Source: Candidatus Nanohaloarchaea archaeon
Lineage (GTDB): Archaea; Nanohalarchaeota; Nanosalinia; Nanosalinales; Nanosalinaceae
Assembly (NCBI GenBank): GCA_046539225.1
Contig: JBKHHG010000021.1
Location: forward strand, 1 to 13,228
Length of the DNA: 13,228 bases
Reading direction: 5' to 3'
In this document: piece after piece, positions 1 to 13,228 of the stretch
How positions within the stretch are numbered: the stretch's first letter is position 1
Layout of the letters: each line of letters begins with the position of its first letter
Program-made: the position numbers and the translations under genes
The notes under the pieces: model-generated
Databases searched by the model: none
What the model was told of the DNA's origin: nothing
What the model saw: only the letters and a program-made list of their open reading frames with translations

Positions 1-666
1 TTACTGGAAGAATACGCCGTCTTTGACCGCGGGCTTGAACTCGGATTCTCGTGTCTTGCTTTGCAGTGGTTCTTCGCCGTGGTATTTTCTGATGTACTGG
101 AAGTAGTCGTAGAGTCTTTGTCTTGCGTATTCTCCGTCGTATTCTACCATTTCTTCTGCGATGAAAGACATGAAGGCCTTTTTGAACAGTTTGTTTAATG
201 GGTAGGCGAGTATTCTTGGGAGGAGCTGTATGCCTGAGGGCATATCGTATTTTATGTCGAGGTCTACCTGGTACTCTACGAATGCGAAGTTGTTTTCGCC
301 TCCTGGCGGGGCCTTGGTCTTAATTGAGGGTGTTATCCTGAGGCTGCCTTTGTCGCTGGGCAGGTCTTCGGAGTTGTCCATCACTGCTTCGAATTCGCCT
401 GTGTCTCGGTGTTCGTAGTAGAATTTTTCGTAGGCCCGCCCCATGTCGATGTTACCGAAGACGTACTTGTGTTCTTTGTAGATTGTGGGGACGTTCGGGC
501 TTTCGTACCATTCGAGCTTTGTCTGGATGGTAACCCAGTCGCCCTGGAACAGGTGTATATCGCTCCATAGGCTGTCCCTTTCCTTGAATCTTTCCTCGTC
601 TTCTATTTTGTAGGTGCCGGGGAAGTGGAACCATGGCAGTATTTTCTTTTTCAGGAGTCCTGTCAT
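1..666 (-). CDS. Hypothetical protein, 221 aa; most divergent member of a three-paralog cluster
   Basis: Complete ORF (ATG 666, TAA 1-3). It starts 2 nt after the stop of the upstream gene. Acidic composition. Segments 'NVPTIYKE...YEKFYYEHRDTGEFEA' and the C-terminal aromatic helices align by eye with the 1285-1731 product. Confidence 0.85.
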   Translation of the reverse strand: MTGLLKKKILPWFHFPGTYKIEDEERFKERDSLWSDIHLFQGDWVTIQTKLEWYESPNVPTIYKEHKYVFGNIDMGRAYEKFYYEHRDTGEFEAVMDNSEDLPSDKGSLRITPSIKTKAPPGGENNFAFVEYQVDLDIKYDMPSGIQLLPRILAYPLNKLFKKAFMSFIAEEMVEYDGEYARQRLYDYFQYIRKYHGEEPLQSKTRESEFKPAVKDGVFFQ

Positions 667-668
667 TT

Positions 669-1280
669 TTATCCCCAGTTAGGCCTGTAGTGGGATCTTC
701 CGCTTGCTCCAATGGTTTTCTCCACGCCGAACTTCTGCCTTAACAGGTCGTGAACCCTTAGAACTGTCTCCTCGGCCTCTTCCTCGTATCTGTGGATCTG
801 TTTGGAGTAGAACTTGTCGTGCCAGATTGAGACCAAGACCTTGTAAAGCTTGGAGTTCTGGAAGGTGGAGGGGTCTTCCGCCATCAGGTTTGAGCCGCCT
901 ATACTGTTGTCCGTCACCGGGGCTGGCTCCCATGGAGTACTGTTTCTTCCAGGGTAATATGTCAGGATCTCGGCGCTTCCTGCAAACTTTGCCTTGAGTA
1001 TGTCGTCAGGCCTCTCCATCGTGTAGATGGTCTTCGGGGGCTTCACTCTTAGCTGGAAGTCGTAGTGGATCAGTGTATGCGGGCTTTTCTCCTTGTAGGC
1101 GTGAAGCCTTACCTTGTCCTTGGGTTTTTGCACGTTGAACTCGTTGTGGCCTTCTTCCAGCCTGTCCATCTCGAACTCGTTTACAAGCAGGTCCTTTATG
1201 CCGCGGTAGATCCTTGCCGGGTCCTCCTTTACAAAGAGGTGGTCGTCCTTTGTAAAGCCGCCGTCCTTGAACTCCACCAT
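669..1280 (-). CDS. Hypothetical protein, about 203 aa; paralog of 1285-1731
   Basis: The ORF track starts at GTG 1310, but ATG 1280 (MVEFK) is preceded by GGAGG and lies 4 nt after the upstream TGA, so it is the likelier start. Shares DP..IY..IKDLL / TYYPG / QNSKLY...Y...EE motifs with the neighbour. Confidence 0.85.
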   Translation of the reverse strand: MVEFKDGGFTKDDHLFVKEDPARIYRGIKDLLVNEFEMDRLEEGHNEFNVQKPKDKVRLHAYKEKSPHTLIHYDFQLRVKPPKTIYTMERPDDILKAKFAGSAEILTYYPGRNSTPWEPAPVTDNSIGGSNLMAEDPSTFQNSKLYKVLVSIWHDKFYSKQIHRYEEEAEETVLRVHDLLRQKFGVEKTIGASGRSHYRPNWG

Positions 1281-1284
1281 TTTT

Positions 1285-1731
1285 TCAGGCCTCCATTGTC
1301 TCCCGGACACGGGTCATCAGGTTTTCAAGCTTCTCCTCAACCGCCGGCTCGTAGCCCTCTCTTACTCCTCCGTAGAGGAACTCGTCGTAGAGCGATCTAT
1401 AGGCGTAGTACCATATAGTGTTCTGCCACGGCATATCACCTGGATACTCCGTGACAAGCTTCGCCTTTATCTGGAGATCAAGCTCGTTCTTCTCAGACTT
1501 TATAGTCAGGAAGATCTCAAGCTTCTCCACAGTATACTTGTCGAATGCCTCTACAGTATGTATCCGGGCCCTTATCCTGCCGGATTCCACGTCGTTAAAG
1601 TACTTGTCTTCATGGACATGGTCGAAAGACATCCTGGACTCGAGAAGCTCCCGGAGCTCGGAGTAAACATTCTCCGGCTCCTCAACCACTATGGTCTGGC
1701 GTCTCCGGGCGACTTCCTCGATAATCTCCAT
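1285..1731 (-). CDS. Hypothetical protein, 148 aa; minimal-length member of the paralog cluster
   Basis: Complete acidic ORF with ATG 1731 and TGA 1285-1287. Motifs EPENVYSELRELL, LVTEYPG and WQNTIWY recur in the downstream gene. Confidence 0.85.
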   Translation of the reverse strand: MEIIEEVARRRQTIVVEEPENVYSELRELLESRMSFDHVHEDKYFNDVESGRIRARIHTVEAFDKYTVEKLEIFLTIKSEKNELDLQIKAKLVTEYPGDMPWQNTIWYYAYRSLYDEFLYGGVREGYEPAVEEKLENLMTRVRETMEA

Positions 1732-1754
1732 AAACTACCTATAGTTACAGGCCT

Positions 1755-1767
1755 AAAAAAAGCAAAG
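1755..1767 (-). terminator. Oligo-T tract after the CBS gene (archaeal-type terminator); may double as the TATA element for the 1731 gene
   Basis: The minus strand reads CTTTGCTTTTTTT just after the TAA at 1771. The T7 run is 24-30 nt upstream of ATG 1731. Confidence 0.4.
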
Positions 1768-1770
1768 GGT

Positions 1771-2301
1771 TTAACGGCACTCCGGGCAGAGCAAAAGCCC
1801 GTTCACCTCTCTCAAATCCTCGGAGTAGTTCTCGCATTCTTCGCACGTCCCGGACTGCGACTCCGGCATAGGAGAGGCCTCAGCATTTAACTCGATTTCC
1901 TCGCCTATGATCTCGGCGTAGCCAGGCCACGCACGGAGAATATCGCTCTGTGTTACTATGCCTGTCAGCATGTCGCCCTCCACGATCGGCACCCGGGAGA
2001 TACTGTTCTGGGTCATCGCCATCGCCACCTCGTCAAGGTACTCGTCAGCCTCGGCGACAATCAGATCTGTGCTCATAACTTCGCTTACCGGAGTCTCCCC
2101 AGGGTCAAGGCCTTCAGAAACTACTTCATAGACTATATCTCTGCAGACCACGACTCCAACCGCCTCGCCCTCATCGACCACTACAAGGCCTCTGATACCT
2201 TCCTCTTCAAGCAGTTCGGCGGCCTGTTTAACGGTTTCATCTTGTTCGACAGCGATAACGCCGTCCGTCATTACTTCCCGGATCTCAACATTGTTTTCCA
2301 T
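1771..2301 (-). CDS. CBS-domain pair protein with C-terminal CxxC...CxxC zinc ribbon
   Basis: Two CBS repeats (IREVMT...IRGLVVVD..AVGVVVCRDI; VSEVMS...ISRVPIVE..LTGIVTQSDIL), followed by CEEC-x15-CPEC. This is a common euryarchaeal architecture. Confidence 0.92.
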   Translation of the reverse strand: MENNVEIREVMTDGVIAVEQDETVKQAAELLEEEGIRGLVVVDEGEAVGVVVCRDIVYEVVSEGLDPGETPVSEVMSTDLIVAEADEYLDEVAMAMTQNSISRVPIVEGDMLTGIVTQSDILRAWPGYAEIIGEEIELNAEASPMPESQSGTCEECENYSEDLREVNGLLLCPECR

Positions 2302-2340
2302 AAAGAACGAAGAGGATCAAAACCTAATTAATGTTGTGAT

Positions 2341-3246
2341 TCACTGAGTTCCTGGAAGAATATTGACTGCGTCGGATTGCTCGCCTTCCTCAACGACCTC
2401 GAAATTAAGGCCTGTCTTCTCAAGTAATTCCTGGGTTTCAGGGATTATGCGATAGTTTCCAGCCTTTACCTTAAGATCCATCATCTTGAGCCTTTGGCCT
2501 TTTATCTCCGGAGATAAATCTATAGGCCTGAACCCCTGACTGTAGAGTTCACGCGAGATAGGATATGCAACAGGTTCTGAAGTGTCAAGGTTTGCCTCTG
2601 TAGCCCAGAACTCTTCTGTGTTAAGAGAAGCGATTTCTTCTTCAATCTGATCCACAGTCGTTTCTCCTTCCCCAACTTCTAATGACATGAAGCCGGTCTC
2701 CTTGCCTCCTCCGCCTTCTATCTTTCCGGCCCCGAACGACCCTCTGATCTCGCTGTTTTCTGGCTTACGATAGTTGATTTCTCTGGCGTTACAGAGAGAG
2801 GCCTCAGTAAATTCCCTGAGTTCCTCAGGAATATACGCTTCTATTTCCTCGTCTATCTTCCAGAGATTAAGATTAAAACCTCCTCCGGCCTCTGATCGAA
2901 CATCACTTACTACAGGGCCGGTATCAAAACCTGAGGCTTCAAAACCTCTGTCCTGTATCATGTGTTGAACTTTGCCATTCATCGAGGTGGCGTATGCGTA
3001 GAGCGTTTCAACGTCAGTGTTTTCCATCAGAAAATCCATCAGAGAACTCGCAACATCTCTGTCTTGGTATTCAGAAAAGACCTCTATGTATTCCAGGACG
3101 CCTGTCTCTTCACTCTCAGAGTATGCCGCCGCCCCAAGCACATTCCCAGCTTCCTCAGCTACGTATATGGCCGTGTTCTCGTCATCTCGGTACAGTTTCA
3201 TCGATGGAGGTAAAGAACAGTCCTCTCCGGCAAAACCCACATTCAT
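2341..3246 (-). CDS. GNAT-family N-acetyltransferase-like protein, 301 aa, probably with a degenerate second domain
   Basis: GNAT pattern 'IYVAEEAGNVLGAAAY...LEYIEVFSEYQDRDVASSLMDFL' (motif A-like) and 'QHMIQDRGF' (motif B-like). A second 'ELYSQGF' segment occurs in the C-terminal half. Confidence 0.7.
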   Translation of the reverse strand: MNVGFAGEDCSLPPSMKLYRDDENTAIYVAEEAGNVLGAAAYSESEETGVLEYIEVFSEYQDRDVASSLMDFLMENTDVETLYAYATSMNGKVQHMIQDRGFEASGFDTGPVVSDVRSEAGGGFNLNLWKIDEEIEAYIPEELREFTEASLCNAREINYRKPENSEIRGSFGAGKIEGGGGKETGFMSLEVGEGETTVDQIEEEIASLNTEEFWATEANLDTSEPVAYPISRELYSQGFRPIDLSPEIKGQRLKMMDLKVKAGNYRIIPETQELLEKTGLNFEVVEEGEQSDAVNILPGTQ

Positions 3247-3276
3247 ATTTATGACTCGCCAATAACAGATAAAAGT

Positions 3277-6200
3277 TTATGTGAACTGTTTCAAACCGCT
3301 CTGGCGTTGATCCTTTCCGAACAGGCTTTGCAGTGTCCTGTTCAAAACCAGCACCTGCTGCCTGAGGTAGGGCGTGACCTCGTACTCCTCGATTATATCC
3401 TTGCTGGGCTGCATATACTTCTTTATGGTTCCCTCGGAAATCGTCAGTAAGACCTTGCCGCCGCATTCAGGGCACTGCGCAGTGGTTTTTCCTGTAGGGG
3501 CGATGGTCTGGTTTGTCATAGGCACTCTTCTGAACTTTTCATTGCAGTCGACGCACCGCATCTCCTGGGAAGAGAAGGAGCGGAGATTTCCTCTTATATC
3601 CGGTAAAAAGTGTTTCTGCAGCAGCAGCTCCGCCACGTTGTCCACATCGCAGGCCTTGATCTTCTCACCGATCTCAAGCTGGGCAGATGTCTTCTCGCTC
3701 ATCTCGTCGAGCGTAACGTACTCCGACTGCTCAGGCCCGTCATCTATATCGCTTGTTTCATGGGTGTAGCCATGAGTGAAAGGATCATCGCTGTGAACAA
3801 TATCCTCTCCTAACTCGATCTCGCAGTCAAGCTCCCAGGGCTTCTTGTACTCCTGGGTCTCGTAGTAAAACTCAAGAGGATACTCGCTGACCGTTTCGAT
3901 CGCCCAGGCCTCATCGTCGATCTCATCAGGATTCAAGACGTTTGAAAGAATCAACGGCGCATCCATGGTGTTGTGAGCGAAGATAGGATGTGGGCCGCAC
4001 AGGAAATTTTGCTGTCCTGGAACCTCTAGATCATAGACATATTCGCTGCCGTAGTCGACTTCTTCTACTTCTCTCACCCTCTCAACATATATATCTCCTT
4101 CCACAGCTTTTTCAAGAGAGTAAAGGCCTTGGTTGTAAAGATCCTCGACTCTCTGCTTAGAGGCTGTCTTCATTCTTTTATTTTCTCTATCGTTGGAGAA
4201 GGCTTGTTTAATCTCTTCGTAGCTTTTTCCTTTCTCTCTCAGTGTTTCTCTTCCCTCTTCAAGAAGATTCCAGAGAGGCCAGTAAGGATCTTTATTCCCC
4301 CACTCTGAATAGAGGACCTCCCATGTTCCTCCATTCTGCCTTGTAGATGACTTGTAGCCAAGTTTCCGCACCAAAAGAGAAAGCTGTGCCGCCATCTCAC
4401 CGCTTTTAGTGTAAAGCTTCGAGAAACCTTTTTCATCATAGACAGAGCCATCGCCGTCTCTATAGGCTTCTATAAATGCCTCTAATTTCTTCATATCGGC
4501 GCCAAAAACAAAGCTTGGAACCTTTTTCGAGTCGAAGTTTTCTCTCTCCAGTCCAAGCTCTTCCAAAGCCTTCATGAAAGTTGCTGGAACCCTAACCGCG
4601 TAGCAGGTTTTCCTGCCCTCTCTGACATCTTCCTTGATTTTGGGCCTCACACCTGTAAGCTTTTCTATACAGCGGACAGCATCATCTATAATCTCTCGAT
4701 CTGTGTTGTAGATATCTCCTCTGTCCAGCGCACCCTCCGACAAGAGGTATCCAAGAAGCCTGTAAAGCTCCTCGCAGTCTTTAAACTTTCTCTCCACTGG
4801 TTCTGCGTTAGCCCTCAGCCTTACCTTACATGATGGAACGGTACCGACCGTCTTATAGAATTTTAGAGGCGCGTCCCTTCTGAAAGTCTTATACCTGTAA
4901 ACATTGTTCTCTCCAAACTCTTCTTTTATCGTGGGCGTGACTTTCTGCTCTATCTCTTTCTTTAGCACTTCCTTCTCGTCTTCAGGAACAGAAACATAGC
5001 ATTCCTCATCCGACAGCACTTCAAACAAGTCGATCTTCTCTCCAAGGCCCTCAACCCCAAGTTCTGGGTTAGAAGGAGCTACTATACAGTCTCCTGCCTC
5101 CAGTTCTCTAACAGGTTTAGCCTCTATTTCACGTCCTTCAGTCACGAATACGCTGTGATCTCCAGTGACGGAGATGCTTCCTCTCGATGTCTTGACTTTA
5201 AACACGTTCTTATCGTTTTCATGTCTTATCAGCGCAGATACATCTCTGAACTCGACTTCGCCCGATTCCCTGTCGAATGATACGGCCTTTATATCATCGC
5301 TGAAGCTTCTTGATACTTCAAAGCCGTCAGGCCTAGTTTCAAACCTTTCTTTCTCCAGAACTTCGTCTATAAGATCATCAGCTCTTGGAGCCTGAATATC
5401 TCCATTTCTCTTTACGACAATCCGAGTGTCTCCCGTGATACTTCTCGCGCCGGTCATGTCCGGTAAAAAGTCGCGTGAAAAGTTCAGCAACCCATCCATT
5501 AACAGTAGGATCGCGTCCTCGTCTCCGTCCGCGTTTCTGCGCTTCGCTGCATGCCAGTAGGGGTGAGCGTACATTCCCTTCGCCTTTGTGAAACCGATTA
5601 TTCTTCCAACGGTTCCTCCGGATGTGTGGGGTGCGAGGCCTATCACGAGCTCGCCTATCAGGTCTTCTTTCGACTCCGCGTTGTAGAAACCCTCCAAACC
5701 GTAAAACTCTTCAAGCAGCTCGTCGACAAAGTTCGCCACATTTACAAAGTAGTCCGAGGCCGGAAGGGTCTTGTCGGACTCCGGAATAACGATATCCTGT
5801 GGCTTCAGCGCAACCACCTGGTCCTCTCTCTCCAATCTGTTTCCGTCAACATCTTCTTTGTAGCCCATTTCCCTGAGTTTTTCGACGGGTGCATTGATCT
5901 CTTTAGGCCTGAAATGAGTTAAGGGTATATCAAGCGCGTCGTACCTGACAGTCGCGTCCTTGTTGACGTATAGACCGTATTTCTGGCGTAGAAGGCCTTT
6001 TTCAATTGGCTCGACGTGTTTATGCTTTGAGGTCATGCCTCTGAACGATTTCAAAAGTTCTGGAGGCTCTCTCATCCCCAGGTTTTCAAGCGCATCGTCC
6101 ATCATCGACTTTACATCGATACTTGCCTCTTTAAACCTCTGGAAGCTGTCGTTGCCGCAGCTGTCGCATTCATCGGGCTTTTCCTCGTGTTGTTGCTTGC

Positions 6201-8226
6201 AGCTGCTGCAGAACCAGATGGGATCGGCCGGAGCATCGCATTCGCGGCAGAAAGCGTAGTGCGTTATTTCCCCGCATTCTGTACATCTGTTATGTATTAT
6301 TTCTTCTCTTACAAGGCCTTCTTTGCTGTGAAGCGTGTTGTTGTAGGATGCTGAAAGGTTTCTCATCCTTCCACCTTCTTTCTTGCCGCAGGGGAAGACA
6401 AGCTGTGGATCGCCGTTCAGGGTTCTTCTCTCGGCTTTTTCAGGCCTCCCCATTCTTGCGCCCATGTAATGCGTGACCTGTCGGCCGACTTCAAGGCCTG
6501 AAACCTTTTCAATAAACTCGGGGATGTCTTCTGAGGCCTGTACAGAGCCGAGTTTTTCGGTACTGTCTTCTTCAGCGTTTAACAAAATTTCGAGGGATTT
6601 TCTATCGTTTTCGCGTATTTCTCCGTCTTCATGCTGTACAAGGCCTTCCTCCATTGCGTTCAAGGCCTTTTCTTCGTCGTGTTCTTTTCCCAGAATCTTT
6701 CTGTAGAGATGTTTGAAGTCTTCCGGGTCGATGTCTCTGTAGTGGTGGGTCCATCTCGGATGCATTCTGATGTCTAAAGCTTGGGAGATCTTCTCTGCTT
6801 CTTCCGGCGTCGGTGTCCTGTCGGAGAAGTCTTTCCCGAGCTCCATATCTTTTTCTTCAAGAGCTTTTTCGAGCTCGAGCTCCCACCACTCATCGACAAA
6901 AGGGGAGGGCACGAGTTTCTTGCCGTTTTCAATGAACTCGCCGTAAGTTACAAGCATATCCCCCATGAACAGGATCTGGTCTATCCTGTCTTCTATCTCT
7001 TTGGCTTCCTGCCTTGTGTCGATTCTTCTGACCTCTCCGCTTTTGAGCCTGACAACAGGAGGCTCTATGCTGTCGCAGGGTGTTCCAACCGTTGCTTTCC
7101 CAGGATACTCTACTTTCAGCTGCGTACCGATAGCTATAAACCTCTGGGATATCTCCATTGTCGCAGGATGGAATGAAACCGCTGCTAAACCGTTGGTCCT
7201 TGAGTGGCCGTACCGCAGCCGGAAACCGCCTTTCCTGCCAGGATGGGCGAACACAGGCCGGCCAGCCGTAAGAGAGCCGAGGTACTTGTCGCTGGGAGTG
7301 TATTTCGATTCCTCTTCTTCCTCTTCCTCGTCTCCAGAGCTGTGGATCTCTTTCTGAAGCTTGAGGTAGTCCTCCACCCACTCCCAGTGTTCAAGTCCGA
7401 AGGCTTTACCCCATTTCTCGATACGTTTCTTGATCTTTGGAGCTTTCAAAGGTAATCCATCAAGATATACGAGGCACATCCCTCCCCTAATCCTGTTTGT
7501 CTTGACGCGGTCAAGATCCTTGTAGTTCGAGACATCAAGCTCTTCAGTCGGACTGCCCGTAACCTCCACAGGAACGTTGCTCGCGATCTTCTTGGTCTCC
7601 TCCCTGGTAGGATTATACTGTTTCGCCGTTACACGGTTATAGTAATCCTCTACCTCGGTTGCGTAACGGTTCAAAACAGTATCAGAAGGCTTGAACTCGT
7701 CAAGGCCTACACCTATCCTCACGTAGTCCGCGATCAAGACGCTCATAGCGCTTGCGGTTCCTCCAGCCGACCTGATAGGCCCAGAGTAGTACACCGCCAA
7801 GTAACTCGAACCATCATCGTTTTTACGAATCTTTACATCGCCTATTCCCTCGAGGGGTGCGGTCGTGATCCCTCCAGTCATGTAAGATACTCCGACACGG
7901 ATACCTGCGTCACAGGCCCGCTCCCTCTCCTCAAAATCGTGAAACCTTCCCTCGGCGATCTCACGGGCGATCTGGAACGCCACACGTTCATCATTTTTTC
8001 CGTACTCCTCCTCTAACCCTCGGATTCTGTCCGCGACGCCTGAATCCTCGAGCTCAGGGAACTGGGCCGCAATCACAAGAGAAGAGGCCTTTTCCGGCAA
8101 GTCAGTCGCGACAGGGATATCCACACGTTGCTCAGGATCCTTTGACTGTTTTCGAGCATCTCTCGCGACTTCATAGGCCTTCTCCGTCTCTTCAGCTATC
8201 TTTTCAAAGTACTCCTCAGTTTTCAT
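3277..8226 (-). CDS. polC: DNA polymerase D large subunit DP2, intein-containing precursor (1649 aa; about 1158 aa after splicing)
   Basis: DP2 hallmarks: APLEGI, YYSGPIRSAGGTA, RIRGGMCLV, GRPVF..P...GGFRLRYG.SR.NG, GTQLKVE.PGK, GARMGRPEK, catalytic HAAKRRNxDGDED, MDAPL, Zn fingers, and a C-terminal PIP-like QSGLKQF. AGGTG ribosome-binding site before the ATG. Confidence 0.98.
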   Translation of the reverse strand: MKTEEYFEKIAEETEKAYEVARDARKQSKDPEQRVDIPVATDLPEKASSLVIAAQFPELEDSGVADRIRGLEEEYGKNDERVAFQIAREIAEGRFHDFEERERACDAGIRVGVSYMTGGITTAPLEGIGDVKIRKNDDGSSYLAVYYSGPIRSAGGTASAMSVLIADYVRIGVGLDEFKPSDTVLNRYATEVEDYYNRVTAKQYNPTREETKKIASNVPVEVTGSPTEELDVSNYKDLDRVKTNRIRGGMCLVYLDGLPLKAPKIKKRIEKWGKAFGLEHWEWVEDYLKLQKEIHSSGDEEEEEEESKYTPSDKYLGSLTAGRPVFAHPGRKGGFRLRYGHSRTNGLAAVSFHPATMEISQRFIAIGTQLKVEYPGKATVGTPCDSIEPPVVRLKSGEVRRIDTRQEAKEIEDRIDQILFMGDMLVTYGEFIENGKKLVPSPFVDEWWELELEKALEEKDMELGKDFSDRTPTPEEAEKISQALDIRMHPRWTHHYRDIDPEDFKHLYRKILGKEHDEEKALNAMEEGLVQHEDGEIRENDRKSLEILLNAEEDSTEKLGSVQASEDIPEFIEKVSGLEVGRQVTHYMGARMGRPEKAERRTLNGDPQLVFPCGKKEGGRMRNLSASYNNTLHSKEGLVREEIIHNRCTECGEITHYAFCRECDAPADPIWFCSSCKQQHEEKPDECDSCGNDSFQRFKEASIDVKSMMDDALENLGMREPPELLKSFRGMTSKHKHVEPIEKGLLRQKYGLYVNKDATVRYDALDIPLTHFRPKEINAPVEKLREMGYKEDVDGNRLEREDQVVALKPQDIVIPESDKTLPASDYFVNVANFVDELLEEFYGLEGFYNAESKEDLIGELVIGLAPHTSGGTVGRIIGFTKAKGMYAHPYWHAAKRRNADGDEDAILLLMDGLLNFSRDFLPDMTGARSITGDTRIVVKRNGDIQAPRADDLIDEVLEKERFETRPDGFEVSRSFSDDIKAVSFDRESGEVEFRDVSALIRHENDKNVFKVKTSRGSISVTGDHSVFVTEGREIEAKPVRELEAGDCIVAPSNPELGVEGLGEKIDLFEVLSDEECYVSVPEDEKEVLKKEIEQKVTPTIKEEFGENNVYRYKTFRRDAPLKFYKTVGTVPSCKVRLRANAEPVERKFKDCEELYRLLGYLLSEGALDRGDIYNTDREIIDDAVRCIEKLTGVRPKIKEDVREGRKTCYAVRVPATFMKALEELGLERENFDSKKVPSFVFGADMKKLEAFIEAYRDGDGSVYDEKGFSKLYTKSGEMAAQLSLLVRKLGYKSSTRQNGGTWEVLYSEWGNKDPYWPLWNLLEEGRETLREKGKSYEEIKQAFSNDRENKRMKTASKQRVEDLYNQGLYSLEKAVEGDIYVERVREVEEVDYGSEYVYDLEVPGQQNFLCGPHPIFAHNTMDAPLILSNVLNPDEIDDEAWAIETVSEYPLEFYYETQEYKKPWELDCEIELGEDIVHSDDPFTHGYTHETSDIDDGPEQSEYVTLDEMSEKTSAQLEIGEKIKACDVDNVAELLLQKHFLPDIRGNLRSFSSQEMRCVDCNEKFRRVPMTNQTIAPTGKTTAQCPECGGKVLLTISEGTIKKYMQPSKDIIEEYEVTPYLRQQVLVLNRTLQSLFGKDQRQSGLKQFT
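3970..5442 (-). mobile_element. Intein (491 aa) with LAGLIDADG homing endonuclease, inside DP2
   Basis: Block A SITGDTRIVV starts at Ser (codon 5442-5440). Block B SVTGDHSVF, block C LLGYLLSEG, block E FIEAYRDGDGS, block F YVYDLEVPGQQNF. It ends in His-Asn (3975-3970) followed by +1 Thr. Removal restores FLPDMTGAR-TMDAPL. Confidence 0.95.
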
Positions 8227-8251
8227 TCTGACACCTGCCCAATGTATTTGA

Positions 8252-8303
8252 AAGCGATGCCGTGAGGCATGGCTTCTGATGATGAAACTTTCAGAAGTTT
8301 CAT
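8252..8303. repeat. Two adjacent inverted repeats in the DP1-DP2 spacer
   Basis: AAGC-G-ATGCC-gtga-GGCAT-G-GCTT (8252-8275) and perfect ATGAAACTT-tcag-AAGTTTCAT (8282-8303). Confidence 0.7.
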
Positions 8304-9890
8304 TTAGAACTGTTTCACCTCTGTGTTCCTGGTTTTGTAGTTTACTATGGTGACTTTTCCCGGATCTGGTTCGTGGCCGACTCTTTTCTGGAAAGGTGTC
8401 TGGGCCTGGAATGTAGAGGAACAGATTACGTTGGTGCCTTTGTAGGATGAGTTGGCGTGGCTGTGGAAATGCCCTGCGACAAAGACGTCCGGTTCTTCTT
8501 CTATTATCAGTGGATCTTTTGAGTCGGGAGCTATAAGGTTGGATCCGAAAGTTGGTGCGAGGTGCCTTCTCTTCAGGAGATCTATCATAAGGTGTTCAGG
8601 CTGTTCGTAGGCCTTTTCCCGCAGTTCTTTTATCTGGTCGGCGTGCTGGTCGAAGGAGTAGCCGTGGTACATCAGGTTTTTGATGCCTTTTGACTCCACG
8701 GCGTGAAGCCTGACCATCTGAGGGTTCTGGACACGGTGAAAGTTGTTGTAGTCTGAGATACTTGGGAATACATTTTTGTCAAGCCTTGGCTGGGGCTCTG
8801 CTAAACGGGTTATATCGTGGTTTCCAGGCCCGGCTATAACCTGTATGTCTTCCGGGATCTTTTCGAACCACTGCTCGAAGGCCTGGTACTGTTTGTAGAT
8901 GTCCGCGATCTCAAGCTCTTCGTCCTGTCCCGGGTAGACACCGACTCCTTCCACGAGGTCGCCAGAGATCACGAGATATCCAACGTCTTTGGCGTCCTCT
9001 GTTGAAAGCCAGTCCGCGAAACGGTCCAGCCTCTTGTGCAGCGTATCCTGGGAGCCGATATGAAGATCGGAGATGTACGCAGCTTTTACCTGCTGCTCCG
9101 TAGTCTTTGTACCCTGTGGGATCGGCAGGTCAGGCCTAACCACAGAATCAGCGTAGATTATGTCGCCTCCCATGGAGCCTTTGGCGCCGATAACCTCATC
9201 GGGAACGATCAGGTCGCCTTCTCTCTCCCCTACAAGAAGCTTGAAGGTTCCTGTCTTGTCCTCTATCTCTACAATGTATTTTCCGTTTCTCGTCGAGTAC
9301 TTATCCTTTACAAGGCCTATAGTCGTCGCTTCTTCCCCCTCGCTTCTTCTTTCCAGTCTGTTGATGGTTGTAGCGGACTTCATCTCTCTGTGCCGCATCA
9401 GCATCTTCTTCATCCTGTCGTAACGGTCGTTGAAAGCACCGAGAAACTCGGGAACGTCTTTCTCGCCCTCTGTAATATCCCTGTCATCCAAAACTTCAAC
9501 TTTCGTAGTCTTTCTGTCTCTACTACCTGAATCCTTGATCTTCACGGTTTTTGACCTGGAGAAATGGGAGCTCCTGTTCGAGTAGATCTCATCCGAGGCC
9601 TTTTCCTCTTCAGGTTCTTCCTTCTTTTGGGACTGCGTTTCCGGCTCTTCTTTTTTCTGTTTAGGCCGCTCCGGTTCGACCTCTGTCCCTGAAGCAGTCA
9701 TAACCTGTTTCTGTTCAGGCCTTGCCTCGATCTTCTCCCTCAGTTTTTCAACCATGTTTTTGGAGACGTACATCGGAGTGGTCTCAAGGTTCTTGATCTG
9801 CTCGACATCGTCGCTGTTCAAGATCTCGGCGGCGTCTCTCTCAACCATGCAGCCCTGTTTCGTCAGCTCTTTTACCGCTTCTTCATTCAT
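8304..9890 (-). CDS. polB: DNA polymerase D small subunit DP1 (proofreading 3'-5' exonuclease)
   Basis: OB fold (TTIGLVKDKYSTRNGKYIVEIEDKTG) plus calcineurin-like phosphoesterase motifs ISDLHIGS, GDLVEG, PGNHD, YHG, LLKRRHLAPTFG and GHFH. Lies directly upstream of DP2. Confidence 0.97.
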   Translation of the reverse strand: MNEEAVKELTKQGCMVERDAAEILNSDDVEQIKNLETTPMYVSKNMVEKLREKIEARPEQKQVMTASGTEVEPERPKQKKEEPETQSQKKEEPEEEKASDEIYSNRSSHFSRSKTVKIKDSGSRDRKTTKVEVLDDRDITEGEKDVPEFLGAFNDRYDRMKKMLMRHREMKSATTINRLERRSEGEEATTIGLVKDKYSTRNGKYIVEIEDKTGTFKLLVGEREGDLIVPDEVIGAKGSMGGDIIYADSVVRPDLPIPQGTKTTEQQVKAAYISDLHIGSQDTLHKRLDRFADWLSTEDAKDVGYLVISGDLVEGVGVYPGQDEELEIADIYKQYQAFEQWFEKIPEDIQVIAGPGNHDITRLAEPQPRLDKNVFPSISDYNNFHRVQNPQMVRLHAVESKGIKNLMYHGYSFDQHADQIKELREKAYEQPEHLMIDLLKRRHLAPTFGSNLIAPDSKDPLIIEEEPDVFVAGHFHSHANSSYKGTNVICSSTFQAQTPFQKRVGHEPDPGKVTIVNYKTRNTEVKQF

Positions 9891-9914
9891 GTTTTCTCCC
9901 CCTTTTTCAAACCT

Positions 9915-11120
9915 CTAAATGTAGAACTTGTCCTCGACCATCTCACGCAGTTTCGCCCTGATGTTCTCCGACAGGTCTACGCTTATCTGCCGCGTTCTAC
10001 CGTAACGGCCTTTCGAAATCACTTTGGCATTGACAACGCCCAGCATATCAAGCTCGGAGATAAGGCCTGAAACACGTCTCTGAGTCAGCTCCGAAATCTC
10101 CAGGTCTTCACATAGCTCCTTGTACTCGCTGTAGACATCGCCGGTCGCGATCTCATCCTCGTCCTCAGTCATCTCCAGTATAGTATACAGCACAAGCTTT
10201 GAATGTTTAGGCTGAGAACGCACTGTCTCAACCACTCTATCCCTCTCAATCTTGTCCTGAGCCCTGTCAACATGCTCCTTCTCTATAATATCCGACTCAG
10301 ATCTCTCAGAGAGCTCGCCCGCCACACGCAGAAGATCCAATGCTCTTCTCGCGTCACCGTGCTCCTGAGCGGCGAGAGCAGAACACTTCGAGATAACACC
10401 GTCCTTCAACGTATCCTCTACAAAGGCCTTATCCGTCCTGTCCTTCAGAATCTTCCTGAGCTCTATAGCATTGTAAGGCGGAAAGATTATCTCCTCTTCC
10501 GACAGAGAAGACTTAACACGGGAATCCATGTAATCAGTAAAGTTCAAATCATTTGAAATACCCAGGATCGAGACCTTTGTCTCATGCAGGTCATCGTTAA
10601 TCCTTGTAAGGTTGTAGAGAAACTCGTCGCCAACCTTTTTCACCAAGGCATCTATCTCATCCAGTGCAATCACTACAACGCCTTTCTGATCCTGCAGAGC
10701 ACTGAAAAACCTGTTGTAGATCTCATCGGTCGGAAGGCCTGTCGAAGGAACCTCTTCGCCCAGCTGGCGGGCGAGTTTAGCAAGTAAACGGTACTCAGTA
10801 TCAGCCACTTTCTTCATCTTGCAGTTAATATATATTATATCGACATCGATATCCTTGTCGTCCGCCACGCTCTTCAGCTGATCCGTAACATGTTTTACAA
10901 CCAGCGTCTTCCCTGTGCCGACGCTGCCATAGACAAAAACGTTGCTGGGATCATTTCCCTTCAAGCTGGGCGCGAGGATAGAAGCAAGCTCGTCTATCTG
11001 GTCATCCCTGTGCAGAATGTTGTCAGGCCTGTAGTTCGTGGTTAAAGCATCCTTGTTTTTGAAGACTGAGTCCTTGTCGACGTAACTTGAGAACATCGAC
11101 TGCAGACCTTCCTTACTCAT
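9915..11120 (-). CDS. cdc6: Orc1/Cdc6 replication initiator
   Basis: Walker A GSVGTGKT, YINC, Walker B LDEID, GDARRALDLL, winged-helix GRYGRTR. ATG 11120 has GGAGG 7 nt upstream (the track starts two codons earlier at GTG 11126). Adjacent to ORBs. Confidence 0.97.
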   Translation of the reverse strand: MSKEGLQSMFSSYVDKDSVFKNKDALTTNYRPDNILHRDDQIDELASILAPSLKGNDPSNVFVYGSVGTGKTLVVKHVTDQLKSVADDKDIDVDIIYINCKMKKVADTEYRLLAKLARQLGEEVPSTGLPTDEIYNRFFSALQDQKGVVVIALDEIDALVKKVGDEFLYNLTRINDDLHETKVSILGISNDLNFTDYMDSRVKSSLSEEEIIFPPYNAIELRKILKDRTDKAFVEDTLKDGVISKCSALAAQEHGDARRALDLLRVAGELSERSESDIIEKEHVDRAQDKIERDRVVETVRSQPKHSKLVLYTILEMTEDEDEIATGDVYSEYKELCEDLEISELTQRRVSGLISELDMLGVVNAKVISKGRYGRTRQISVDLSENIRAKLREMVEDKFYI

Positions 11121-11161
11121 CGACACCCCTCCTCTAATACAATCATCTTAACCCCTGTAAA

Positions 11162-11180
11162 GTTCTACTTGAAATAAAGG
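11162..11180 (+). promoter_or_regulatory. ORB1 (degenerate/mini-ORB, short G-string)
   Basis: GTTCTACTTGAAATAAAGG matches the TTCCAnTnGAAAnnAAGGGG pattern with one core mismatch. It is about 40 nt upstream of the cdc6 start. Confidence 0.65.
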
Positions 11181-11209
11181 CTTATATTTGCTTCCATCTG
11201 AAGGCCCAA

Positions 11210-11235
11210 CCCCCACCCCCTTATTTCGTATGGAA
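11210..11235 (-). promoter_or_regulatory. ORB2 with extended G-string
   Basis: The minus strand reads TTCCATACGAAATAAGGGGGTGGGGG. Confidence 0.85.
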
Positions 11236-11256
11236 AATTCTGTGAGCCGAATCTCC

Positions 11257-11313
11257 GAGATATAACGGTGTTATAATAGTATTAGTTTGTTATACAGATA
11301 TACGCCTGTTATA
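11257..11313 (+). repeat. Three degenerate 19-bp units, each ending in TGTTATA
   Basis: TGTTATA at 11269, 11288 and 11307 (exact 19-nt period). Units: GAGATATAACGGTGTTATA / ATAGTATTAGTTTGTTATA / CAGATATACGCCTGTTATA. Confidence 0.65.
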
Positions 11314-11342
11314 TCTTCTAACCGCGACCTGGAAAAACAAAA

Positions 11343-11366
11343 CTCCACTCGAAATCAAGGGGGTGG
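11343..11366 (+). promoter_or_regulatory. ORB3, G-string pointing to the DUE
   Basis: CTCCACTCGAAATCAAGGGGGTGG. Confidence 0.88.
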
Positions 11367-11409
11367 CTGCTTCAGGCCTCGAGAACTCGAATCAGTAAAC
11401 GCACAGAAA

Positions 11410-11580
11410 CTCGCATATAAATTCTTGCATACAAAGTTCGACTCTCTTACCACAAAAGTATAGACCTGTAGAACACTATTAAAAACCATATACTAACTTC
11501 TAAGATCTTTAAAATACCAGAAATATTTTTCAAACCTTTTATTCTTGTATCAAGCCTGTAATAAACCTCTGTTTCTGTAT
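11410..11580. other. AT-rich DNA unwinding element (approximate limits)
   Basis: Visibly AT-rich non-coding tract (e.g. CTATTAAAAACCATATACTAA, TTTAAAATA, AAATATTTTTCAAA) between inverted ORB3 and ORB4. Confidence 0.7.
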
Positions 11581-11603
11581 CAGGAGCTTCTAAGGCCTCA
11601 GAA

Positions 11604-11625
11604 CACCCCTTTGTTTCAAGTGGAG
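11604..11625 (-). promoter_or_regulatory. ORB4, inverted relative to ORB3
   Basis: The minus strand reads CTCCACTTGAAACAAAGGGGTG. Confidence 0.88.
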
Positions 11626-11672
11626 ATAGGCCTGTATATGGTTTAATAGAGTCGGGTCTATAGTTTTTTCAG

Positions 11673-11825
11673 ATGAGTAATTCTTCCAGGGAAGACGGCA
11701 GGGACCAGGCCGGAGAAGTTGCAAAGACAGCAGCCTCCCTGGTTTCAGGTGCAGTAATTATGTGTTTCAGACTTTTACAGTCGGTGCTTTCAACCGCGTT
11801 CAGAATCCTGGCTACTCTGGCATAA
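11673..11825 (+). CDS. Putative 50-aa small protein with hydrophobic/amphipathic C-terminal helix
   Basis: Hand translation: MSNSSREDGRDQAGEVAKTAASLVSGAVIMCFRLLQSVLSTAFRILATLA*. TTTAATA at 11642-11648 sits 25-31 nt upstream of the ATG. Shorter than any ORF in the supplied track. Confidence 0.55.
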   Translation: MSNSSREDGRDQAGEVAKTAASLVSGAVIMCFRLLQSVLSTAFRILATLA

Positions 11826-11876
11826 AAAATGGAAAACATGTAATCTTTTGCAACATATTTGAGTACAGGAAAACTC

Positions 11877-11895
11877 TGTATAACACTGTTATACA
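11877..11895. promoter_or_regulatory. Perfect palindrome TGTATAACA-C-TGTTATACA, candidate operator
   Basis: 9-bp arms with a 1-nt spacer, 16 nt upstream of a TTTTAA box (11912-11917) that precedes the glycosyltransferase ATG. Confidence 0.55.
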
Positions 11896-11948
11896 AACCG
11901 GTTGGAAGAGATTTTAAGCATCGAGCAGAATACAGGATTAGAGGCCTG

Positions 11949-12695
11949 ATGAATAGAGACGATACCGTGTTTGTATACACATTAAGCAGCAGAAAGAAGA
12001 TGGCGCAGCAAGCGCTCCGCTCAATCGCCACATTGAAACACTACGTGGAAGAGGAAAAGATCAAAATCTTCTACACCCTGCCCTACAGTGAAGAAGATGA
12101 AAAGGCCTTGAAAGCTACAGGAGCCGAACTAATCAAGAAAGAAAACCAGACAGAGGCCTTCAACGTATCAAGATCTCTTCCGGAAAGCCACTACGGAGAA
12201 AAAATCAATTTATGCAGTATTGATGCGGAGAACGTGGTCTTCCTCGACTGCGACACTATTATAGGAAACAACATATGGGAGGTACTGGAAGGCGATTTCG
12301 AATTTAAAGCGAGGCCTTCGGAAGAGATAGATAGTGATAATAGAGAGTGGCAGGCCTTATTCGGCCGAAACAACGAAGAATATCTGCCCTGGATGCCCAA
12401 TGCAGGTTTTCTAGTGTTCAAGAACGGTTTTCACAGAGAAATAAAGAATAAATGGGTTAAGTATGTCAACAAGGATCTGGATTTCCAGGTGGACAAAGTC
12501 AGCCACGATGAGCAATACGCATTGGCGTTAGCAGTATCAGGAGCGGATATAGAAGAGATGAATCCAAAAGAGCATGTGTTTGAATACTTGGGTGAAAAGA
12601 CAGCAAACGCTTATGTGTACCACGTAGATCACGCGGCAGGGAGCAACATGATAAACCTGGTCAAGAACTACGCCAAGAGGCTGAAAAAATGGTAA
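11949..12695 (+). CDS. GT-A fold glycosyltransferase-like protein (GT8-like), about 248 aa
   Basis: N-terminal 'VFVY...ALRSIATLK', DxD motif VVFLDCDT, PNAGFLVF, DEQYALALAV, late VYH. ATG 11949 (GAGG upstream, TATA at 11912) is preferred over the track's TTG 11859. Confidence 0.75.
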   Translation: MNRDDTVFVYTLSSRKKMAQQALRSIATLKHYVEEEKIKIFYTLPYSEEDEKALKATGAELIKKENQTEAFNVSRSLPESHYGEKINLCSIDAENVVFLDCDTIIGNNIWEVLEGDFEFKARPSEEIDSDNREWQALFGRNNEEYLPWMPNAGFLVFKNGFHREIKNKWVKYVNKDLDFQVDKVSHDEQYALALAVSGADIEEMNPKEHVFEYLGEKTANAYVYHVDHAAGSNMINLVKNYAKRLKKW

Positions 12696-13228
12696 AAATT
12701 TTACTGGCCTCAAGACATGGAGGCCATGCAACCAGAACACATCTGGTAAAAGAAGTACTGGAGGAAGAATACGAAGATCCAGAATATGTAGTGGCCACAG
12801 ACTACAAAGATGACTACGAATATGGAGAGAAAAAGTACAGGGTAGACAGCTTCAGAGCTACAAATGGAAACTTTTACAGGCCTGTAAAAGCACTGAAAAA
12901 CCTGTTTAAATCAGGACACATCTTGAGAAAAGAGAGGCCTGACGTCGTTGTATGCTATGGAGCAAACACATCGCTAATTTTAGGATTTTTGTCCACTTTT
13001 ACATCCTCTAAAGTGATAGCGGTCGAGTCAGAGAACAGGACCCAACAACCCAGCATGTCGCCCAAGATACTCAACAGGTTCGGAGCAGAAGTATGGGCGT
13101 CCTACAATGATATAATGGACAAGTACCCCAGAGACAATATAGTGAACAAGGGCCTAATCCAGAGAAGAAGCTACGAAGAATACCGGTCAGAAGAAAAAGA
13201 AGGAACACTGGTAATCCCATCTTCAACA
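12689..13228 (+). CDS. Alg14/PssD/MurG N-terminal-like GT-B glycosyltransferase, truncated by the window end
   Basis: Hand translation, open for 180 codons: MVKILLASRHGGHA...LRKERPDVVVCYGAN...KVIAVESENRTQQPSMSPKIL.... The GGH, RPDVV and ESxxR...PS motifs are typical of this family. The start overlaps the upstream stop by 7 nt. Confidence 0.8.
   Translation, partial: MVKILLASRHGGHATRTHLVKEVLEEEYEDPEYVVATDYKDDYEYGEKKYRVDSFRATNGNFYRPVKALKNLFKSGHILRKERPDVVVCYGANTSLILGFLSTFTSSKVIAVESENRTQQPSMSPKILNRFGAEVWASYNDIMDKYPRDNIVNKGLIQRRSYEEYRSEEKEGTLVIPSST

Follow-up and report, generated by a model that had tools for sequence, protein, structure and literature searches.

AGGCCT, a highly iterated palindrome of some nanohaloarchaeal genomes, and its possible causes

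The classic short palindrome to recur far beyond expectation is HIP1 (GCGATCGC) of cyanobacteria, which together with the alternate HIPs stands at least 15-fold (15- to 300-fold) above expectation (PMC4390886, PMC5861425). Here we analyse AGGCCT, a palindrome of similarly large excess, in a 13,228-bp stretch of DNA (contig JBKHHG010000021.1; the window) from Candidatus Nanohaloarchaea archaeon, a tiny salt-loving symbiotic archaeon, in its source genome (G000; 606,781 bp in 38 contigs, 82% complete) and in the relatives of that genome. According to those reports, HIP1, like AGGCCT, lies in both genes and spacers, is not explained by codons and has variants that differ mostly at the end bases, and the alternate HIPs are sporadic and switch between relatives, as AGGCCT does. 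AGGCCT differs in being archaeal and in having six bases with a GGCC core, the word being neither GCGATCGC nor a GC-methylated relative of it. It occurs about once per 210–500 bp, whereas HIP1 occurs about once per 1,000 bp, and no cognate methyltransferase or MutS was found in the genomes searched. HIP1 sites are described as more conserved between genomes than expected and as periodic over tens of kb; for AGGCCT, a simple test of one genome detected no kilobase-scale period, and individual sites showed no conservation beyond what filling predicts. AGGCCT behaves as HIP1 does but falls outside that group, from which it differs in sequence and in the methylase.

Uptake sequences of Pasteurellaceae and Neisseriaceae, as far as the available sections of PMC2817400 describe them, also run to thousands of copies, roughly double the peptides that they encode and are sparser in conserved genes and in recently acquired DNA, all of which holds for AGGCCT. 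In contrast to them, AGGCCT is a palindromic hexamer, it fills genes without homologues nearly as well as others, and ComEC was found in none of five genomes tested. The same word is a methylated (StuI-type) restriction–modification site in Alcanivorax borkumensis SK2, with 1,674 sites in the part of PMC12128166 that reports it. Type II systems acting on GGCC (HaeIII/NgoPII) or on AGGCCT (StuI-type) use the same word or its core, but the relatives with an NgoPII-type pair (2 of 61) avoid AGGCCT, and the motif-rich genomes have no such system. In Escherichia coli, the repair bias of the Dcm/Vsr very-short-patch system enriches the methylase site and depletes CTAG. The outcome in G000 is similar: its 133 CTAG sites are 0.06 of expectation, a much lower level than congeners with less GC show. 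AGGCCT nevertheless departs from Dcm/Vsr: no Vsr was found in five genomes and no C5 methylase in the single-contig motif-rich ones, the products of deamination are not consistently lost, each of the six bases is driven, with transversions among the changes, and the loss of CTAG among relatives does not track AGGCCT.

A preliminary description of the window, made from its letters, knew of no account of such a motif in archaea, and our literature search, which lay outside subscription journals, supplements and REBASE, likewise returned none. The archaeal excess is apparently unpublished. A nanohaloarchaeal methylome (PMC11001535 and PMC10266531, in the portions available) reports GDGCHC, and the accessible text of PMC11001535 mentions neither GGCC nor AGGCCT. 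The cause of palindrome excess in prokaryotes has been an open question for decades in the case of HIP1, in part owing to its presence in almost every cyanobacterium; for AGGCCT, a genus of 1-Mb genomes that includes both on and off states makes the cause findable. The leading model of HIP1 requires a methylase, and none was found here, so either the cause of AGGCCT must differ or that model must widen. Because AGGCCT skews both proteins and k-mer signatures, it matters for binning, the dating of gene transfer and the host assignment of nanohaloarchaeal viruses.

AGGCCT as a genome-wide signature

By exact count over its 13,228 bp, the window holds 47 AGGCCT (3.55 per kb), which makes the word the top-ranked hexamer. 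About 47 had been counted by eye in the preliminary description; the total is indeed 47, all 40 coordinates listed there are exact, and the seven left off the list are 4124, 5329, 7703, 8609, 8879, 9596 and 9717. With genes taken from a simple open-reading-frame caller built for this analysis, 17 copies read [KEQ]-A-x, 14 x-G-L and 12 R-P, and four lie outside genes (1749, 11374, 11593 and 11628).

174..12940, no strand: 47 dispersed AGGCCT (exact match), starting at the positions below
Starts, first part: 174, 681, 1008, 1287, 1749, 1875, 2108, 2186, 2408, 2524, 2799, 3651
Starts, second part: 3906, 4124, 5329, 5636, 5905, 5993, 6314, 6442, 6494, 6534, 6641, 6663
Starts, third part: 7703, 8085, 8175, 8609, 8879, 9132, 9313, 9596, 9717, 10063, 10424, 10735
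Starts, fourth part: 11025, 11374, 11593, 11628, 11942, 12103, 12154, 12312, 12352, 12878, 12935

The density of the window is below the genome mean (3.55 versus 4.7 per kb). G000 carries 2,850 AGGCCT, distributed over all 38 contigs at 1.7–5.8 per kb, which is 20.2 times the mononucleotide expectation and 5.9 times the order-2 Markov expectation. The runner-up palindromic hexamer is CCCGGG (195 sites, 3.4-fold), and GGGCCC is rare (34 sites). When synonymous codons were shuffled within genes, keeping proteins and codon counts, AGGCCT was the top hexamer (2,535 observed versus 432), with an excess of 5.2–6.8-fold in each frame (observed/expected 455/88, 915/172 and 1,165/172). Spacers of 20–600 bp in G000 hold 240 copies against 6.3 expected (38-fold). 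The corresponding values are 50-fold in the motif-rich relative G005, 18-fold in motif-rich G022 and 0.5-fold in motif-free G024; the data for G022 are a 360-kb portion and those for a further genome, G066, 80 kb.

It is very improbable that codon usage, amino-acid composition or simple mutational bias makes this excess with no dedicated system. An order-4 Markov model does bring AGGCCT down to 1.1-fold, as such a reading would have it, because the 5-mers AGGCC and GGCCT carry the signal; the reading is contradicted by the 5.9-fold excess over the codon-preserving shuffle, by its presence in all frames and in spacers, and by the absence of AGGCCT from congeners of similar GC. AGGCCT is a genome-wide, DNA-level signature independent of frame, as had been proposed from the window, and the proposed likeness to HIP1 held for abundance, frame independence and the tendency of one-off variants to deviate at the first or last base. 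The excess survives codon shuffling, is greater than that of other hexamers and extends well beyond the window. An excess of TTCGAA and AGTACT hinted at in 4-kb loci was not outstanding in longer loci, in which no other word came near the counts of AGGCCT.

Where the protein permits the word, it is usually present. In G000, 2,549 of 3,258 protein-compatible positions are filled (78%; 85, 75 and 79% by frame), with odds of about 23 over the shuffle in genes; fill by frame is 84, 71 and 71% in G005, 52, 54 and 64% in the 360 kb of G022 and 5, 3.5 and 3% in G024. Across five classes of gene conservation, fill is flat (0.71–0.84), with densities from 2.6 to 5.3 per kb that are lower in conserved genes. 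Because fill stays flat despite this twofold range, site-poor regions are not topped up. In G005, fill is 0.78 (449/573) where G000 has a site and 0.76 (505/663) where the G000 protein forbids one. Of 1,306 aligned G000 sites, 450 recur in G005, compared with 13 of 1,354 in a motif-free genome, and this recurrence does not exceed what independent filling would give. A 10-bp period is absent, and in a simple kilobase-scale test of one genome, G005, the Fourier peaks fell below the 95% permutation level (9.2 versus 9.5; 5.9 versus 7.0). The sites behave independently, with one departure, that of close pairs. In G005, type I restriction islands and islands of low GC are among the longest stretches without the word. 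Of the 40 strain differences listed (among 116), none destroys or creates an AGGCCT, too small a number to count.

The force behind AGGCCT has changed amino acids. Observed/expected ratios for Arg-Pro are 1.65 in G000 and 1.58 in G005 but 0.79 in motif-free G024, and those for Gly-Leu are 1.45, 1.30 and 1.01, respectively. Relative to G024 orthologues, compatible positions are 1.84-fold more frequent in G000 and 1.67-fold in G005 (six control words, 0.97–1.23-fold), ratios that the avoidance of GGCC in G024 may inflate. In a comparison of 60 gene pairs with 76% identity, compatible positions number 195 in G005, 151 in its motif-free congeners and 150 in G024; 52 of 148 G005 sites lie where the motif-free congener and G024 both carry incompatible residues, and the differences between G005 and its congener at sites involve all six bases, transversions included.

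The doubled peptides and the lower density in conserved genes recall the uptake sequences in the available sections of PMC2817400, and AGGCCT could be a self-recognition mark for DNA uptake or recombination that accumulates by molecular drive, as in Neisseria and Haemophilus. We consider this improbable. ComEC (PF03772) was found in none of five complete genomes, among them all four complete motif-rich ones (controls positive in 10 of 14); fill is nearly as high in genes that lack a G024 homologue (0.71–0.73), unlike the case of uptake sequences; and a six-base word common to four genera makes a poor species mark. We know of no uptake sequence that is as short as 6 bp or palindromic. With no ComEC found, no 10-bp period and no kilobase-scale peak above the permutation level in G005, the earlier suggestions of an uptake signal or a chromosome-organising signal gained no positive support.

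Sequence specificity was gauged at positions where the protein forbids AGGCCT but permits a one-off variant. At such positions, AGGCCC and GGGCCT are at 2.8–3.5-fold in G000, 4.0–4.9-fold in G005 and 4.5–4.9-fold in G022, versus 0.44–0.48-fold in G024. The remaining end-base variants reach 2.7–4.0-fold in G022, inner-base variants lie at 0.4–1.5-fold in motif-rich genomes, and end-base variants in G024 lie at 0.36–0.92-fold, which gives a preference order of AGGCCT, then AGGCCC/GGGCCT, then AGGCCA/G. The inner variants AGACCT and AGGTCT are at 1.43 and 1.50 in G000 (1.0-fold against the shuffle), 1.19 and 1.52 in G022 and 0.72 and 0.61 in G005, with no consistent loss of C-to-T products of AGGCCT in these three genomes. 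Because the preference is graded and symmetric, the reader of the motif would be a homodimer that recognizes AGG half-sites, with a stringency that varies by lineage.

The sample of relatives comprised 50 genomes of the family, with the reversed word as control. Thirteen of the 50 are motif-rich, in four genera (g1, 5 of 5; g7, 3 of 3; g19, 3 of 3; g2, 2 of 6). One g1 genome, G003, is only moderately rich (762 sites versus 151 of the reversed word), and G063 is borderline (892 versus 547). Outside the family, 24 genomes were counted (30–500 sites each), and in absolute terms none is rich. A 30-row Cdc6 tree places the rich genera inside one clade of 15 rows (98/93), where they are mixed with poor genera. 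Nine of 80 named loci are rich (7.6–15-fold), including SG9 (L370), Ca. Nanosalina sp. VS9-1 (L394) and strain M3_22 (L399); all nine are nanohaloarchaeal, in agreement with the earlier suggestion that the motif belongs to this lineage. Ca. Nanosalina sp. J07AB43 (L396) is not rich (1.4-fold).

In the DNA examined, motif-free g2 congeners show no remnant of the motif (17 of 95 positions filled at G005 sites, 27 of 168 overall). This speaks for separate gains, or else for a loss old enough to have been erased. Together with the patchy distribution, it suggests that the motif arose more than once, probably with a mobile gene or allele. Single steps are not polarizable, because synonymous sites are saturated (37% identity).

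Among viruses, a scan of at least 120 loci for three clustered sites gave none that looked nanohaloarchaeal in the 30 most enriched, and 9 of 80 long viral loci had at least 5-fold enrichment and at least eight extra AGGCCT. One viral contig (L262; 10 kb, 56% GC) holds 30 AGGCCT and 32 CTCGAG and has no similarity to nanohaloarchaeal proteomes. A locus titled Colwellia polaris (L388) encodes a Cdc6 82% identical to that of the window, with flanking genes about 70% identical to nanohaloarchaeal ones; it is probably mislabelled.

Possible writers of the motif

We tentatively favour, with slightly less than even confidence, the view that AGGCCT is written site by site by a putative sequence-specific DNA-binding factor that biases repair or conversion. 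Such a factor comes into consideration because the methylases that accompany HIP1 were not found, and drive is preferred because there is no sign of an influence of position, spacing or local density and because congeners do without AGGCCT. The observed force favours each position by a roughly constant factor whatever the gene (odds of about 23 in genes, 38-fold over composition in spacers), and it is on in some lineages and off in their congeners. The homodimeric factor would recognize the AGG half-sites and tilt mismatch repair or gene conversion in favour of the strand with AGGCCT. It would have been gained more than once, probably as a mobile gene or allele, and the sites themselves could be functionless. 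A bolder version, which we regard as doubtful, is that a horizontally moving, methylase-free factor rewrites the chromosome toward its own six-base target, changing hundreds of amino acids, and is switched off or reversed where GGCC restriction arrives. If this is true, the factor would be a new kind of sequence-specific genome drive and would offer a route to explaining HIP1.

Several observations weigh against a driving factor. No gene for it was found, in a search that would overlook genes also retained in G024 and allelic differences in shared genes. As neither a methylase nor MutS was found, no mark is known by which the strands could be told apart. A position left empty in one genome is filled less often than others in a second genome (0.51 versus 0.78), so context matters. 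Site pairs 9–32 bp apart are scarce (325 versus 448.5, p about 5e-10), which is unlike independent drive; the ratio is 0.46 at 9–12 bp and about 1.0 from 33 bp on. Finally, weak additive selection per site would give every pattern seen as well.

Because selection of that kind yields the same patterns, we regard as the main rival a possibility that we nonetheless think unlikely, namely that AGGCCT is kept as the binding site of an abundant chromosomal protein (a nucleoid organizer, protection or a replication aid), with each site adding little fitness. The graded, symmetric specificity is consistent with this, as is the reach of the close-pair dip, which ends near the 30-bp footprint of an archaeal histone dimer. 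The top seven matches to the G005 histone are the major histones of motif-rich genomes of g1, g2 and g7, ahead of those of its own congeners. For HIP1, Xu et al. argue in the available part of PMC5861425 that selection acts. The same binding-site account does not sit well with the lack of apparent periodicity, of compensation in site-poor genes and of site conservation beyond filling. No residue of the major histone separates motif-rich from motif-poor genomes (43 sequences of 44): the best, T63, is found in 8 of 11 motif-rich genomes but also in 3 of 32 motif-poor ones, and the residues presumed to contact DNA do not differ.

Unrelated, equally strong inverted hexamers are scarce at short range too: 9–20 bp apart, they are at 0.55–0.81 in G000 and 0.79–0.93 in G005, compared with 1.0–1.1 in G024, and direct half-site pairs barely dip (0.93 and 0.88). 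As two palindromes can pair as a hairpin, these controls weaken the reading of the dip as a protein footprint, and general hairpin avoidance accounts for part of it. In coding DNA, strong short inverted repeats 13–20 bp apart are at 0.74–0.89 of the null in G000, G005 and G022 and at 1.03–1.08 in G024, on small counts.

The preliminary description had pictured an orphan GGCC/AGGCCT methyltransferase acting with Vsr-like repair, and neither component turned up. G000, 82% complete, has no match to PF00145 or PF01555. Of four single-contig motif-rich genomes, none matches PF00145 or PF02086, and one (G022) matches PF01555 (N4/N6 methylase) above the cut-off. PF00145 occurs in one of ten motif-rich genomes (G004, on a short contig), and strong matches to PF07669 and PF02384 were found in single genomes only. 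Among these five Pfam families, to which the search was limited, no enzyme is common to the motif-rich genomes tested; weak matches that we inspected read as THUMP/Trm11-like or RsmC-like RNA methylases. Vsr (PF03852) was found in none of five motif-rich genomes and MutS in none of five genomes tested. NucS/EndoMS is present in all five genomes tested, motif-rich and motif-poor alike, and as a driver is therefore no marker of the motif.

These results bear on a ratchet of the kind proposed for HIP1, in which a GGCC/AGGCCT methylase (lost, unrecognized or provided by the host) labels the strand to be retained in repair. The end-base deviations match those of HIP1 in the available part of PMC4390886, methylation across the host–symbiont boundary is reported for a nanohaloarchaeon in that of PMC11001535, the incompleteness of G000 leaves room for a missing gene, and inner G/C variants are depleted in G005 (0.40–0.72). 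We nevertheless find such a ratchet improbable, although less so than an uptake mark: no methylase of the families searched is shared by the motif-rich genomes tested, MutS and Vsr were not found, and the inner-base depletion is not repeated in G000, as the values for AGACCT and AGGTCT above attest.

Genomes that do have a GGCC system also speak against the ratchet. An NgoPII-family nuclease adjoining a C5 methylase occurs in only 2 of the 61 genomes, G020 (L337) and G024 (L178:488-2407), and these hold just 73 and 97 AGGCCT, the second and third lowest counts in the family. Membership of the NgoPII family and the presence of only 705 GGCC in the 973 kb of G024 suggest that the system is specific for GGCC. 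Over 1,481 aligned bases of 16S rRNA, G024 has 3 GGCC and G005 has 10. As the only GGCC systems sit in AGGCCT-depleted genomes, the methylase in this family goes with the loss of AGGCCT.

Candidate driver genes

For the driving factor that we favour, gene contents were compared among G000, whole G005, whole G024 and 360 kb of G022. This gave 35 G000 genes that are common to G005 but missing or much weaker in G024, an imperfect negative because GGCC restriction could have erased AGGCCT there while the driver gene stayed. In Pfam scans, 242 of 264 soluble G005 proteins without a good G024 homologue yielded only mobile defence genes (type I, type IIG and Mrr) and metabolic enzymes; membrane proteins, G005 proteins shared with G024 and 178 proteins found only in G024 were left out of these scans.

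Individual candidates, eight in all with NucS and the major histone (the most tempting of them), did not follow the motif. The PolB2 operon is present in motif-poor G014 and missing from motif-rich G022 and G034. An 87-amino-acid SWIM-like protein occurs in 12 of 61 genomes, five of them motif-poor members of the family, and in none of g19. A metallophosphoesterase gene adjoining that of the major histone is found in 34 of 50 genomes but not in g19. A winged-helix gene adjoining histone C, RPA and RadA is present in 38 of 50, and the Arg of its recognition helix occurs in 12 of 12 copies from motif-rich genomes and in 5 of 11 from motif-poor ones; this gene looks decayed in G024 (C1:18346-18591) and was not found in several g2 and g11 genomes. 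A 69-amino-acid winged-helix gene with an alkyltransferase-like gene (G005, 922–930 kb) is matched in motif-poor congeners, and a second block of 20 kb (G005, 1.00–1.02 Mb) is common to them.

The RadA allele type was also rejected: g19 shares its divergent type with motif-poor g20/g21, and motif-poor congeners share the type of G005. The family has two RadA types (L338–L367), the divergent allele (64–67% identical to that of G005) being carried by g16, g19, g20 and most of g21 and the others being 76–90% identical. The divergent form lies at the same locus in G022 and G024 and looks like an allele replacement. A DnaG-like Toprim protein (G000:C4:31464-32564) occurs in G000, G005 and G022 and was not found in complete G024.

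Genes and other features of the window

The window carries genes of DNA replication and other features, as follows.

1749..1754, no strand: AGGCCT in a short intergenic spacer between the called genes 1285-1731 and 1771-2301
3277..8226, minus strand: PolD large subunit DP2 (Pfam PolC_DP2 domains), with 16 copies across all three frames
3969..5476, minus strand: intein with a LAGLIDADG domain within DP2 (Pfam Intein_splicing, residues 977-1419)
8304..9890, minus strand: PolD small subunit DP1 (Pfam), with 6 copies
9915..11126, minus strand: Cdc6/Orc1 (Pfam), with 4 copies; used as phylogenetic marker
11374..11633, no strand: three AGGCCT (11374, 11593, 11628) in 730 bp of non-coding DNA upstream of cdc6, with no gene called

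The DP2 intein is motif-poor, with 2 copies in 1,508 bp versus 14 in the 3,442 bp of the host gene. Because contigs from two runs of one study skip 3969-5476, intein-free DP2 alleles exist in related organisms. The closest records to the Cdc6 of the window are nanohaloarchaeal. Upstream of cdc6, the non-coding stretch 11127-11858, which includes the three AGGCCT listed above, contains G-string motifs that we take to resemble archaeal origin recognition boxes, and it is likely to be the replication origin. At the other end of the window (1-1731, minus strand), three adjoining genes of 221, 213 and 148 amino acids, without Pfam matches, look by eye like distant paralogues.

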